This document shows, piece by piece, positions 13,018-19,452 of a stretch of DNA of 64,000 bases. Within the stretch, counting starts at the first letter, position 1, and the number at the start of each line of letters is the position of its first letter. Origin of the DNA: Moniliella sp. 'wahieum' (lineage: Eukaryota); assembly GCA_003971905.1 (NCBI GenBank), contig RSEE01000140.1:1-64000 (forward strand), written 5' to 3'. Both the position numbers and the translations under genes were made by a program. The notes under the pieces were generated by a model. The model did not search any database. It was not told where the DNA came from and saw only the letters and a program-made list of their open reading frames with translations.

Positions 13018-16000
13018 ATGTCTACCTTCAATGTCGTCTACATCTCTGCTGGCAACATCATTTTTGGCACGGACGGTGCGTCCCCTCCCCCTCTTTGCTC
13101 TGGCACTGGCTGAGCTGTAGTCTGACACGTGGACAGAGGGTGTCGGCCTCGCTACTACCACAGAATGTGAGCACTGAACGTCGTATTGGACTAAGAAGCT
13201 TCTGCGACTGACTCGTCCAGAACTGGTGCGAGCTCGGAAGGAATGAAAGCTGACTCACGTGACTCAGGTCCGCGCGGTCCTAGGACGGATGTCAACACCC
13301 CCGCTGACCGGAGGGCCCAGTCATGTGGACTGGATCCATCTCCTCGACGCGGAGTTGAGCAAGATGGCTTGTCAGGGCGGGACGGCCGAGAGGCTTGGTG
13401 AGGACGTCCGCTGGGTTCCTTTCGCGCGGGGATGTGTACAAGTATGGCCTCGCCCGAGTCCACGTGTTGCCGTACATTGTGGTACCGGATCTTCAGCTCT
13501 CGGAGCTTGCCGGTGCTGCCAAATTTGTGGGCGAGATCGACGACAGACTTATTGTCGCAATACCAATGAATGGGTGTACCCTCGCCGATGGCCCCAAGCT
13601 CGATCATGATGTTCTTGACATAGTTGGCGTCAACCAGTCCATCATATCCTGCCGTATATTCGGCGGCGGCGGTACTGGTAACGCTCTTCGGCTGAAGATG
13701 GATCGCCACGACACCGGCACACCGTACACCATCAGTAGGCATCCAGATGTGGAGCGTGCCTGGATGGGATCTCCCGCCAAGTCGGAATCTGTATACAGCG
13801 CAATGGCCGGTGCATCTGATGTTGGGGTCAACCTCAGGCCCTTTCCTCGAGTATGGTACAGGTAGCGAAGGAAGTCATCGACTGCTTGATGATGCTGCTG
13901 CGATGGGTCGGCAGCGGCTCTGCTGAGGGCCGTGATAGCGAAGAGGGAGTCAGGCCGGCCCATTCGTGCAGCCCACAGTCCCGATCCGATCTTCCCCTGA
14001 TATGCCTTGCGCAAGGCTGGGAGGGATGGGGGTTCAGGGTCGGCACGGGGCGGTATCATCCGTACGGATGTGGGAGAGTCCGGATCCACGGGCTTTGATG
14101 TGGTGCTTTGCCACCACTTCCTCGATGAACTTTGGTTGGCTCAGGTACAGCTCCCCACCGATCCGATCGTATTGGCATCCAGGTGGTAGTGAAGGGGACC
14201 GTTACCACGAACATCAATGTGTGTGTTTATCTCGGCCATAAACTCCTCGTACTTTTGGTGTGACTTGCATGCGAGGAGCAGATCGTCGGTGTGGACCGCC
14301 AGGAGGATCTGCTCACCCGGTGGTGCAGCGCGCACGAACAAGCAGGGCTCGGTCAAGCTTTGCGTGAAGCCGAGCTTGTCACGCAGCAGGTTCCGGATGT
14401 ATCGTGCCCAGTTTGCTCCGCTCTGATGTAGCCCGTATAGACTCTTCTTGAGACGCCACACGCGACCACCCGCTTCGGGGAAGTAGGGGGGTGGGCGGAT
14501 GTAGACTGCTTCTTCGAGGGGGGCGTTCAGGTACGCTGCATTGACGTCCGCCGAGAAGAGGCCAAACTTATACTTCTCGGCCAGCACGACGAGGGTCAGG
14601 ATGGCAGGTGTGCGCACCGATGGTGCGAACGTCTGGCCCCAAGTCTCGGCCGATTGTTGGTGTCCGCCCGCGACAAAGCGCGCGCGGTGGCGCAGGAACC
14701 GGCCCTCGGCGTCCGTCTTTGTGGTGATGCGCCATAGTCCTATGAGGATTTGTGCACCCGGTGGTGGGTACGTAGCCTCGTAGGTGCCGTATCGCGCGAG
14801 TGTGGCCACCTCGTCGGCCATAGCCTGCTTGACCATGGCAAAGGAGGGGTGAGTCTCGAGACCCTTGAGCGTCTTGGGAGCGAGGGGTACGCCATCCTTG
14901 GTGAGCTGAACCGTGTCCGGGTGGATGGGTGCGCTGAGAGCAGTCATGGCGGCGTATTCGGGAGGTTGAACTGTGTCGGCAAACGGGGGGGCGGATGTGT
15001 CAGGTAGGGGGCGGGCGATGCCGATCTCTGGTGCGGCGCAGTGGGGCGTGGCGGCTGCAGCACGAGCATGGTAGGTCGTGTCGGTGGGGTCGTCAGCGAT
15101 TGGGAGTGTGTGCAGGTCGAGGGAGGTGCGGGTGGGTGCGCTGAGGGGGTAGCGGCGCGGAGGGGGGGTGGTGGTGGGAGCGGGTGTCTGGGGTGTGGCG
15201 GCGGTTCGGGGCATGGGTGCTGCCGCGGCTGGCGGAGTAGGGTTAGCGTCTTTTTCACTGTCGATTTTAATTTGAGGTGATTTGGAGATGTCGGGTGGGA
15301 AGTGGTCGGGGTGGAGATGGGGGTAGATGGCGTTGCCCCATTTGTACGGTTTCGACCAGCGGTAGGTGAAGGTACCCAGGGATGGTTGGTATGTGGCGAA
15401 GAGCCATCCCTTTGATCCGCGCTGATGGTGGTATCCTACCAGCATACCTTCCTCTGCCCGCGCGCTGAGCTTGTGCTCGCGGCGTGACTCGGGCAGATGG
15501 AGGTATGCAACGCGGCCAAAGGGTTGCATCGGTAACGAGTATGCGTGGCCTTTGTATCGCTCAAATCGCGATTTGTTGTCTTCCCCGGATGTTTTGAGTG
15601 GCATTTGGTTTTGGGTGAAGCACGCAGCGTGGAGGCTGTGTTCCCACCAGTCCGACGTCGGAAGACCTGTACCCAAGAGCAACTGCCTTGCACGAGTCGT
15701 TATGGTTCGGATGGCACGCTCAGCCACACCGTTGCTAGCACTCTGCCCCGGGATTGTCCGTTCTGACGTGTGCCTTGCTCGTCCAGAAAAGGTTGCAGTG
15801 CGCTTGTCAATTCGGGGGCGTTGTCCGTGCGCAAAGTCCGCAGCAGTCTGTCCGGGCCGTAGCGTTGCTCCCGCAATATGAGGTTCCGCAGTTCCTTCGT
15901 TGCAGCGCCCTTTGTCGGGATCGCTGTGGTGAAGACGTACCGCGTGAAGTCATCAACGGCGACGAGGGCGTATCCGTGCCCCATGCCGGTTACCCGGGGG

Positions 16001-19000
16001 AGGTCTACTACGTCGACGTGGAGGACCTCGAAAGGTCTTTTGGATCGGAGGCGGTCCCGGCTCGGATGGGGCGATGCTGTCGCTAGTGCCACCGCGCATG
16101 TTGGGCAATCCCACTCTGAACGACAGAGGGAGATATGCTTGGCTGTGACGCGGAGGCCTGCGGTTTCCGATCGTGTAAGCCAGGGGAGGAGGTCGATGGC
16201 TGCGTGGTTCCAGCGTTTGTGGGCTTTAGAGACGTGGTCCAGGGCCAGGGATGCTGCGAGGGAGTTTGGGGTTGAGGGTGGGTCGGCCGGTTTGATCGGT
16301 TTGGTCGCCATGGCCCGCAGGGGTGTGGGTGGCGTTCGCGGGTTGTGTAAGATCGTGAATTGATAGTCACTGCCGGTTACTTTTCGTAGGGTGGATCCTG
16401 GGTTACCAAGCCAGATACCCTTCTGGTGTGGGGCGAAGTATGATGCGATTCCGGTGTTCGACAGGTGTGCTACACTGACGAGATTTCGGCTGAAACGGGG
16501 CATGTATAGGCTGTTGGGGAGTTTTATCTCCATTTGGTGTCCTCCTAAGCATCGGATACGGATTGTGGCCGTGCCTCGTCCTTCCGCCTTTACATGTGTC
16601 CCGTTAGCAACCTCTATCTCGTCGTCGCAAGGGGTCATGGATGTGAAGACGGATTTGTCTTTCCAAATGGATGGGAATGCCCCACTGTCATATAATGCCC
16701 GGATGATTCGCATTTCGCCCCCGAGTTCCTAGTAGTCAGCTGTGCCCGCATCAACGTCAATCACTTCAGACTCGGGAGAGCTCGCTCTCTGAGCGACGTG
16801 AGCGTTGGCTCGGCCTGGGTTGCGCGGAGGGACAACAGGTTTATTAGACGTCGCGCTGCGCCAGGGTTGGTTGGTGCGGTCTTGCCCCTTGGTCTTTGTG
16901 TCCGCGAGGTTGTCGTCGCCGGCTTTGCCCCCGCTGGAGTTTTTTCCCCCGCTGGTGGGTCGTCCCCCGCTGTCGGGTCGAGTCCAAGGCGTTCCTCCGT
17001 TGACCGGCTTGCCTCCGTTTCTCTTCCTTTCTCCACCGGGATACGTGGCGGCTGGTATGTCCATCACGGCCTGCCGTAACTTGTCTAGACTCGAGCGCTC
17101 TTCACGCTGGCGAATGCTCATGTCGCGTAAGCCGAGTAGGATCCCAGTGCGTTCCTGCTCTTCCGTAAGTGGGATGCCCGCTCGCGTCAGGCTTGCACTG
17201 ATCTCTTCCATGTAGTCGAGGTAGTCTCGACCCGATCGGTTTCCTTGGTCGGCCGAAAAGTAGCGAATGAGTAGAGGCCCTCTGTTTGCGGTAGGCGTAT
17301 ATCCATACCGCTGACGCAGCATGTTCAGCGTGTCCTGGGTGCATGATATTTCGTGGTGGGTGCGGATCGTCCGGAAGAGGGTTGACGGCATGGCTTCCCT
17401 AAGAAGGTTGTGCAAGCGTCTGTCGAGGTCCTCGGTGAAGTAGCGGGAGCTGCGACCATTCTGGACGACGTCGCTTGCGTGGGGGTGGGCATCTGTTATC
17501 GCGAAGAGAAATTCGTCTTCCCAAGCGCTGTAGGCGGACGGGTCTTTGTTCAGATCAGGCCACTTGATATTCTTGGTGGGAGACTCGCGTAGTGATCTGT
17601 AAAGGTCGTACTCGGGTCGCGAGGCTGCGCCTGTAGGTGCCCCCAAAGTTGCGTTGGGTTGAGTTTCCATTTGGTGGATGTTTTGCACCACAAAATTCGT
17701 AGCCCGTCGAACCCAGTTTGTCGTGATAGACGTAGGTTCGTCCTTCCATCCAAGCCACTCGGCTCTGTCGTGTATAGCTCTGTTGATCTTCTCTTTAACG
17801 ACATCGATGTCGTTCGTCTTCTTGAACCACAGGTGCGCTTCGGCGCAAAGCATCATGAGTTCCTCGTTGTCGGTGCCAATCGGTGGCGGATCGCGACCGG
17901 TTGGTGTCCAGTAATCGCGCTTGTTCACCATTGTGGTGTCGCTGACCGAGAGATCGGTGTTAGCGTTGGCGCCCATGGTTGTGGGTGTAGTTTTGGCCAG
18001 CTCAGGGATGAGCAGATAAGGATGTAACTCTGTCGGCCTCGCTACTACCACAGAATGTGAGCACTGAACGTCGTATTGGACTAAGAAGCTTCTGCGACTG
18101 ACTCGTCCAGAAGACTGGTGCGAGCTCGGAAGGAATGAAAGCTGACTCACGTGACTCAGGGTCCGCGCGGTCCTAGGACGGATGTCAACAGAGGGGCCTT
18201 GGAACCACTCGATCCGGCTGGAACGCAAGCTCGGCGACCGCCTGCGCGTCGTCGCTCTGATCGACCCAGCTACAGAGCTGGCCCAGAAGAAGATTGACAC
18301 CAAGCGTGCCAACAAGGAGAAGACTGTGGCTGCGGCGTATGCCAACACGGCCATCTTCCCTTCCTTTGACGCCTACATCCAGTCGGGTGCGGCCGAGAAG
18401 ACCAAACCAGAGTACGTGTTGTTCGTTGTTTTTGCTCGTGTAAATATGTACCTGTACTGTACCTGTACCTGTACCTGTACCTACCTGTACCTGTACATGC
18501 GAAGGGGCTTTGTGTGGTTGTGCCGAGCCAAGTTGGATGCGAACTAACGTGCGAACCGTTTGACAGTGCGGTCTGGATTGGTGCGCCGCCGGCGTTCCGA
18601 GGCCGTACCGAGCCGGGCCGGAACATTGAGCAGCTGGTCATGGCAGCGTTTCCCAATGTGGGCATCTTTATCGAGAAGCCCGTGTCGAGGGACCGGTGGA
18701 CCAAGCGCTTACCGTTGCGGACCAGCTGGAGGCCTACCCCGGTCCCACGGGGGTGGGGTACATGTTGCGGTACCTCAAGGTGGTGCAGAAGATGAAATCG
18801 ATTCTGGAGGAGAACAAAAAAGGTGATGGCGACGAATGCGCGGTACGTGATGGCGTATGAACACACGGCCAAGCGCCGGCGTGGTGGGACAAGAGCAAAG
18901 ATCTAGGTCCGATCATTGAACAAGCCACGCACTTTTGTGATTTGAGTCGCTACTTTGGTGGGGACGTGGTGTTGGATTCGATTCTGGCCACTGCATTGGA

Positions 19001-19452
19001 ATTTGATGAAGCGCCAGGCCACCTGTCCAAGGTGCCCGTCGACGAGAGTGTCATCCCGCCGGAACCGGATTCCTCGGGTGACAGCGGCCAATTGGACCTA
19101 CACCTCGGGCGCAGTGGGCAGCCTAATGCACTGCGTTGCTCTGCAAGGTACCGAGTACCAAACTGAACTGGACGTGTGGGCCGATGGGTACTCGTTGCGC
19201 CTCGTCGACCCGTACAACGATCCTACTCTCTACGTCCGCTCGCCCGGCTCGGACAAGGAACAAGTGTTCCGCTACGAAGACGATCCGTTCTATACCGAGG
19301 TGTCCCACTTGATTGACGATATTGAGAAGCCCGGCTCGGCACCGATCCTGTCCACGTTCAAGGATGCGGCCAAGACGTACGAATTCACTTGGGCCATCCG
19401 TCGCGCGTCGGAAAAGTCGACGGCAGAGCGCCGGGCCAAGCGCGCGGCCTGA
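13018..19452 (+). CDS. NAD(P)-binding Gfo/Idh/MocA-type oxidoreductase interrupted by a copia element; exon1 13018-13075, intron 13076-13136, exon 2 resumes 18192, intron 18412-18566
   Basis: Removing the element gives MSTFNVVYISAGNIIFGTD-EGPWNHSIRLERKLGDRLRVVALIDP; later IFIEKPVS, GPIIEQATHFCDLSRYFGG, DAAKTYEFTWAIR. Confidence 0.85.
13141..13297 (-). repeat. 3' LTR (157 bp)
   Basis: TGTCGG...GTCAACA; matches 18031-18190 except for a 2-nt and a 1-nt indel. Confidence 0.97.
13292..16728 (-). CDS. pol: Copia Pol (aspartic protease, integrase, RT, RNase H); several apparent indels
   Basis: PR LYDSGA; IN HKRWNH..CPTC, VLHVD, VDDFTRY, LRTDNAPE, NGVAER; RT RARFVAGG, DVNAAYLN, LKKSLYGLHQSG, VHTDD; RH YTDSDLAG, RSTSG, AEY, YCDNKS, NPADVLTKPL. 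Confidence 0.93.
13298..13305 (-). other. Short polypurine tract (AGCGGGGG) abutting the 3' LTR
   Basis: Minus strand reads AGCGGGGG-TGTTGACA. Confidence 0.65.
16729..17976 (-). CDS. gag: Gag (415 aa; no CCHC knuckle seen)
   Basis: Uninterrupted ORF from the ATG 54 nt after the 5' LTR to TAG at 16729-16731; copia-like YSAWEDEF and LRQRYG segments. Confidence 0.8.
   Translation of the reverse strand: MGANANTDLSVSDTTMVNKRDYWTPTGRDPPPIGTDNEELMMLCAEAHLWFKKTNDIDVVKEKINRAIHDRAEWLGWKDEPTSITTNWVRRATNFVVQNIHQMETQPNATLGAPTGAASRPEYDLYRSLRESPTKNIKWPDLNKDPSAYSAWEDEFLFAITDAHPHASDVVQNGRSSRYFTEDLDRRLHNLLREAMPSTLFRTIRTHHEISCTQDTLNMLRQRYGYTPTANRGPLLIRYFSADQGNRSGRDYLDYMEEISASLTRAGIPLTEEQERTGILLGLRDMSIRQREERSSLDKLRQAVMDIPAATYPGGERKRNGGKPVNGGTPWTRPDSGGRPTSGGKNSSGGKAGDDNLADTKTKGQDRTNQPWRSATSNKPVVPPRNPGRANAHVAQRASSPESEVIDVDAGTADY
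18031..18190 (-). repeat. 5' LTR (160 bp)
   Basis: Direct repeat of 13141-13297. Confidence 0.97.

Follow-up and report, generated by a model that had tools for sequence, protein, structure and literature searches.

A gag-UAG-pol Ty1/copia retrotransposon in the fungus Moniliella sp. 'wahieum', with a stop codon that is very probably inherited

Introduction

The best-studied Ty1/copia retrotransposon with an in-frame stop codon after gag is Tca2 (pCal) of Candida albicans, in which the order is gag-UGA-pol and Pol is described as arising from a gag-pol RNA driven by the long terminal repeat (LTR); the published account leaves remote signals or splicing open as ways past the stop (PMC2194720). 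A second such element, VdLTRE5 of Verticillium dahliae, is likewise gag-UGA-pol, is described as lacking the CARYYA motif, and has a layout that its authors call very rare (PMC3441728). Within the Ty3/gypsy superfamily, Tj1, Tosmo and Tcry1 of fission yeasts carry an in-frame stop between gag and pol with programmed readthrough, and the stop of Tj1 is reported to be essential for transposition (PMC10085805). Here we analyze a 64,000-nucleotide (nt) stretch of the genome of Moniliella sp. 'wahieum' (contig RSEE01000140.1, positions 1 to 64,000; the whole stretch is called the window), which holds on its minus strand a complete Ty1/copia element of 5050 nt (13141-18190), the sole copy of the element within the window. 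In this element the codon that closes gag is UAG. An earlier note, written from the sequence alone, had pointed to Tca2 as a precedent for the layout, and the descriptions of both Tca2 (PMC2194720) and VdLTRE5 (PMC3441728) agree with it. The gag-stop-pol layout of copia elements is already described from these two, and the element presented here adds another case.

Results

Gag and pol lie in one frame on either side of a single UAG

The minus-strand junction reads GCT GAC TAC TAG GAA CTC GGG GGC GAA ATG CGA ATC ATC CGG GCA TTA TAT GAC AGT GGG, letter for letter and at the coordinates given in the earlier note, which had claimed one common frame interrupted by a single UAG. Two stop-to-stop open reading frames (ORFs), 16729..18372 for gag and 15700..16728 for protease-integrase, occupy one frame with a lone TAG between them, and the open lengths on its two sides are 415 codons (gag) and 342 codons (protease-integrase). 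The TAG stands between the final gag residue and the protease, whose LYDSG motif begins at 16695 on the minus strand, with DSG at 16689-16681, 13 codons past the stop. As this is the one in-frame TAG among about 1560 codons, a changed genetic code was rejected. The landmarks of the junction are listed here.

16729..16731, minus strand: in-frame TAG closing gag, from the sequence reading; the related gag protein P0008 ends at the same alignment column
16718..16722, minus strand: GGGGG run lying after the stop and ahead of the protease motif, where a miscall would alter the frame relation of gag and pol
16711..16713, minus strand: first ATG past the stop, in the context GAAATGC, with 5 codons between stop and ATG and 8 codons from there to the catalytic Asp

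A diverged relative ends its gag at the same residue

To look for relatives, a query of 758 residues (gag-X-protease-integrase, with X at the stop) was run with HMMER against 1.84 billion representative proteins. There were 1509 proteins at E<=1e-3, 57 at <=1e-10 and a single one at <=1e-30. The latter, P0002, is a pol protein of 1004 amino acids (aa) that is 65% identical in integrase and 58% identical over an alignment with the reverse transcriptase (RT) piece. Another match, P0008, is a 410-aa gag aligned by HMMER to gag residues 86-413. With BLASTP, gag and P0008 match at E 9e-25 and 28% identity, the alignment reaching residue 414 of 415 in the one and 409 of 410 in the other. MAFFT places the two C termini in one column, and the last 26 residues are ungapped, 9 of them identical. 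P0002 and P0008 are each found on a single 5089-nt contig, implying that they are probably parts of a single element of about the same size as this one.

Since gag has diverged to 28% identity and yet ends at the same residue, there is a strong argument for a stop that has long been present in the lineage. Judged from these sequences, the co-terminal P0008 gag and the LTRs free of substitutions make it very probable that the stop is an inherited part of the element's design. Both claims of the earlier note that bear on this point, namely that the stop is real and that it falls exactly at the boundary of gag and protease, gain support, the first from the same two lines of evidence and the second from the shared alignment column of the gag ends.

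The opposing possibility is a dead element whose TAG arose as a nonsense mutation private to this copy or through an error of base calling. There is only one copy in the window, and the TAG lies outside the contigs of the three sequencing runs X1-X3 described below, both of which leave room for such an origin. It would nevertheless have to account for a protein only 28% identical that stops at the same column, for a chance nonsense change at just that one codon of about 1560, which is very unlikely, and for LTRs that are substitution-free in an element whose other breaks are all indels. We regard a private mutation or miscall as highly improbable.

Further searches for relatives gave little. 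Gag alone had no match among proteins near it in length, and a profile of gag plus P0008 found P0008 alone among proteins of similar length and no match among longer ones, which is weak evidence against fused forms. DNA of the relatives was found neither in scans of prokaryote genomes nor in viral contigs, and a search of phage records gave no match.

The insertion looks young, and its other frame breaks are indels

The element is bounded by direct repeats spaced 4890 nt apart that align as LTRs, with CCCTC on both flanks.

18031..18190, minus strand: 5' LTR, 160 nt, TGTTG...GACA, with no substitutions and 3 indel bases relative to the 3' LTR
13141..13297, minus strand: 3' LTR, 157 nt, from the direct-repeat alignment
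18191..18195, minus strand: target-site duplication CCCTC, 5' copy
13136..13140, minus strand: target-site duplication CCCTC, 3' copy

The 3 indel bases and the lack of any substitution between the LTRs indicate a very young insertion, or differences that are themselves assembly errors, or both. The coding regions between them are as follows.

16732..17976, minus strand: gag ORF, 415 codons, with its ATG at 17976 in the context ACCATGG; homologous to P0008 (E 9e-25)
15700..16728, minus strand: protease (Pol_BBD) with the beginning of integrase (rve) by Pfam, sharing the frame of gag
14141..15949, minus strand: C-terminal part of integrase (SH3_retrovirus) and reverse transcriptase (RVT_2), in another frame, by Pfam
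13298..14140, minus strand: final portion of RT and the RNase H region, cut into several frame pieces, with a purine run ahead of the 3' LTR; breaks near 14165, 14090, 13697 and 13426

The succession of gag, protease, integrase, SH3-like domain and RVT_2 is the copia order, with integrase before RT, and the order of protease, integrase and RT confirms the earlier assignment of the element to the copia type. The pol of this copy is split by one-base indels, near 15770 as well as at the four places in the last row. Comparison data came from X1, a DNA run of a food metagenome with low-coverage contigs and a 0.13 share of words with the element. Its contigs lie on 13206-13983, 15667-15858 and 16121-16373 only, while X2 and X3 match 33 nt only. 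Set against the window, the X1 contigs show substitutions at 6 places and indels at 5. One of these indels is a single base added after 15770 in an X1 contig, which is the size and the side of the shift parting the protease-integrase and RT ORFs (16728 mod 3 = 0, 15949 mod 3 = 1), and another is a single base added after 13697, between the final two frame pieces. At 14141-14143 there is an apparent in-frame stop; the second frame there reads GCQYDRIGGELYLSQPKFIEEVVAKHH, matching GCQYDTINGKLYLSQPKFIEESIAKHE of P0002, so that two nearby indels are its likely cause. P0002 itself runs unbroken through the stretch matching 13298..14140.

As the other ORF breaks are frame shifts, the TAG is the only break of the substitution type, and the earlier remark that the visible errors are indels holds for the ORF breaks in this copy. 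The pol frame breaks look like uncorrected assembly error rather than decay. Taken as a whole, this is probably a recently inserted, autonomous Ty1/copia LTR retrotransposon of a small and poorly sampled fungal lineage. For annotation, the value of the case is that it marks a probably active retrotransposon, in which the breaks in pol would be errors of the assembly and not signs of decay.

An in-frame stop is a minority layout among distant copia elements

Among the 150 listed matches of the protein search, 27 consist of one aligned stretch running from query residue 408 or earlier to 438 or later, across the stop at position 416; by their alignment, these more distant copia proteins are fused at the stop position. 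For 10 of the 150 the start is no more than about 15 residues away from it; these are starts set by the gene caller or fragments, and they prove nothing. A metagenome scan gave 80 distant loci at 24-37% identity, 63 of them with a protease match, and these 63 fall into the following classes.

38 loci: fused, with at least 200 open codons upstream of D[ST]G
2 loci (L001, L070): in-frame stop, with an ORF of at least 100 aa upstream in the same frame
2 loci (L038, L077): long upstream ORF in another frame
9 loci: unclear
7 loci: no D[ST]G found
5 loci: ORF runs off the contig

From these classes, the in-frame stop is a minority layout among copia elements, in agreement with the literature.

Two kinds of junction among the distant loci deserve description. 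In L001 (2690-2770) and L002 (76-153), both from one metagenome, gag ends just past a CCHC knuckle with GAA TGA CTAGCCGGCAG, and pol follows in frame, the stop lying 61 codons before DSG. The two loci agree in all 11 bases past the stop but not in the gag bases that precede it. The 8 bases GAA-TGA-CT are also the context described as conserved in the fission-yeast elements Tj1 and Tosmo (PMC10085805). In L038 (1160-1360), an upstream ORF of 449 codons and the pol ORF, which are in different frames, share about 94 nt, 32 codons ahead of DSG, and the junction looks like a gag-pol of the frameshift type.

Low-level readthrough is the most likely way past the stop

How might Pol be made? We infer that the most likely route is low-level readthrough of the UAG into a Gag-Pol fusion, to which we give about an even chance. 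With gag, UAG and pol in one reading frame, most ribosomes would halt at the UAG and yield Gag, while a small share would pass it and yield the fusion, which would set the ratio of Gag to Pol and bring Pol into the particle. The UAG would be decoded by a near-cognate tRNA with no stimulatory hairpin adjacent to it, possibly assisted by distant sequence or host factors, as has been left open for Tca2. The codon is followed by G (UAG GAA), as in the signal of the murine leukaemia virus (MuLV) type, although no stable structure starting about 8 nt past the stop, which belongs to that type, was found.

Folding was evaluated around the junction, with pseudoknots outside the model. The 60 nt from the stop fold at -11.3 kcal/mol (z +1.05) and the 100 nt from the stop at -22.2 kcal/mol (z +0.82); in a scan with windows of 50, 80 and 120 nt, those starting at the stop gave z +0.56 to +1.1. 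The pairing CUCGG...CCGGG just downstream, proposed in the earlier note as an aid to readthrough, gains no support, being a 6-bp helix with two G-U pairs in a region where the stretches past the stop fold worse than shuffles. The best-folding of the 33 windows scanned lies farther away, inside the protease coding region, at -37.1 kcal/mol, with 1 of 200 shuffles as good.

16492..16611, minus strand: stretch of 120 nt with more stable folding than shuffles, located 120 nt past the stop, z -2.76

At 120-240 nt downstream, this structured stretch is too far from the stop for the usual type of stimulator.

Several observations count against an inherited stop that is passed by readthrough. First, the comparison depends on a single relative known from protein sequences alone (P0008, P0002); P0002 starts inside integrase, and the searched library holds no protein covering the relative's protease. 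Second, the contigs of X1-X3 all lie outside the TAG site, and the search of sequencing runs found no RNA run with the element and one DNA run (X1). Third, the RNA at the stop folds no better than shuffles, so that a stimulator of the MuLV type is not seen, and the hexamer past the stop, GAACUC, fits neither of the motifs CARYYA and CUA(G) as given in PMC3441728 and PMC10085805. Fourth, 300 nt around the Tca2 stop are reported to have given only background readthrough in S. cerevisiae (PMC2194720), and the closest precedent therefore does not prove readthrough. Finally, the GGGGG run separates the stop from the protease motif in an indel-prone assembly, and the shared frame of gag and pol depends on the correct calling of this run (16722-16718) where one-base indels occur.

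This last point gives rise to an alternative in which gag and pol are truly in different frames and joined by programmed frameshifting, masked by a miscall in GGGGG 16722-16718 or at a nearby base. At least 7 places within the 5050 nt show one-base indels of the assembly, and the run lies inside the critical 36 nt. At about 0.14% per base, though, the chance of an indel in those 36 nt is estimated at about 5%, and none of the indel places seen is within a run of 5 or more. With one G fewer, just 2 codons of open pol frame would precede the gag stop, and with one G more, 10 codons would be open; no X XXY YYZ heptamer was seen in either stretch. A hidden frameshift is accordingly judged very unlikely.

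Splicing in a minor share of transcripts could also remove the stop and give a Gag-Pol fusion mRNA, through an in-phase intron of 36 nt (16764-16729) or 69 nt (16797-16729). The sequence offers CTGAC 7 nt before the AG of TAG and an in-phase GT 36 and 69 nt upstream. The 36-nt look-alike raised in the earlier note is there as far as its parts go, with GTGATT in codon phase 0 from 16764 and with both the AG and CTGAC, which resembles a branch site, but its donor is weak. Fungal introns are usually longer than 36 nt and have the donor consensus GTRNGT. The possible donors before the TAG, at 16797 (69 nt), 16771 (43 nt) and 16764 (36 nt), are all weak; the donor sequences are GTGATT, GTCTGA and GTCGCT, none of them GTRNGT. 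Over the whole element there are 13 CTRAY motifs and 10 GT...CTRAY...AG candidates of 30-70 nt, 0 of 10 with a GTRNGT donor. Moreover, the 11 codons that the 36-nt intron would take out are coding, as they align with the C terminus of P0008 (EVIDVDAGTADY versus EILSVDLALSDK). Splicing was raised for the Tca2 stop too, though its authors thought it unlikely (PMC2194720), and here we hold it to be very improbable.

A further alternative is that Pol is made apart from Gag, with AUG 16713 as its start codon, used through termination-reinitiation or on a minor internal transcript whose 5' end lies near the junction. Coupling of stop and restart is known in fungal viruses and non-LTR retrotransposons. 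This AUG is 15 nt past the gag stop with a purine at -3, and a product starting there would retain the whole Pol_BBD match, which spans residues 13-93 of the ORF downstream of the stop. On the other hand, reinitiation is generally inefficient after an ORF as long as 415 codons, and Pol made on its own would have to enter the particle in some other way. P0002 starts inside integrase; if the gene caller took the first ATG, the relative would be without an ATG near its gag stop. For the internal transcript, a weak promoter at the junction is described in Tca2, but the authors judged that it was not the main source of Pol (PMC2194720). Separate production of Pol is rather unlikely on balance. Leaky scanning past gag was rejected as well, as the gag AUG is in the strong context ACCATGG and 415 codons intervene.

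A broader proposal is that the UAG is passed with no local recoding signal at all, be it by the 36- or 69-nt intron, by reinitiation at the AUG 15 nt downstream, or by readthrough that draws on the structure at 120-240 nt. We consider this possible but doubtful. If true, such a signal-free route would bear on the bypass of the Tca2 stop as well.

Gag, primer-binding region and flanks

No Pfam family matches the gag ORF, and no CCHC knuckle is present in it. Over residues 184-415 it aligns with the gag portion of the fused copia polyproteins P0015 and P0024, which carry Retrotran_gag_2. P0008 resembles the gag ORF in that neither protein matches a Pfam gag family or has a CCHC zinc knuckle, and common to both is a tail rich in Gly, Ser and basic residues, followed by a conserved acidic end.

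Directly after the 5' LTR, at 17995-18030 on the minus strand, the sequence (GAGTTACATCC...) lacks at its start the usual TGG of a primer-binding site and resembles the opening bases of the LTR (GTTGACATCC). There are no tRNA genes in the window with which a primer-binding site could be compared. The nearest recognizable host ORF, at 18946-19452 on the plus strand, encodes an oxidoreductase C-terminal domain (PF08635, E 2.1e-17), and the remaining flanking ORFs tested matched no Pfam family.

Discussion

How copia elements whose gag ends in an in-frame stop produce Pol is an open question, and this holds even for Tca2, the best studied among them. A second and unrelated-looking fungal lineage, with UAG as the stop and no adjacent structure, provides a further system in which the question of bypass can be asked. 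Relatives of the host are transformable, and programmed readthrough is said to have been documented in relatives of the host by Stiebler et al. in 2014.

Of the systems outside copia, Moloney murine leukaemia virus shares with this element the UAG followed by G and the in-frame arrangement of gag and pol (PMC2194720). In contrast, MuLV is described as needing a spacer and a pseudoknot directly downstream, whereas the RNA downstream of the stop is here no stabler than shuffles. Tj1, Tosmo and Tcry1 also have an in-frame stop between gag and pol, but they belong to another superfamily, and the GAA-TGA-CT context reported as conserved for them is absent from this element, though L001 and L002, which are unrelated copia loci, have it.

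Among copia elements, VdLTRE5 is similar in having an in-frame stop between gag and pol, no CARYYA in its published description, and short LTRs (159 bp in VdLTRE5, 157-160 nt here). It differs in that its stop is UGA and its host an ascomycete, while the stop here is UAG, the comparison being by description only. The likeness to Tca2 is one of layout and again by description only: each is a copia element of a fungus in which gag and pol share a frame and are split by a single stop at the boundary of gag and protease, and in both the route past the stop is unsettled, as far as the accounts of Tca2 go (PMC2194720, PMC7175516). Tca2, whose host is an ascomycete yeast, is described with UGA, a purine-rich spacer and a predicted pseudoknot; the element of Moniliella sp. 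'wahieum' has UAG and no stable fold adjoining it. What is distinctive about this element, compared with both Tca2 and VdLTRE5, is its UAG stop, the lack of an adjacent predicted structure, and its place in a lineage with one other known element.

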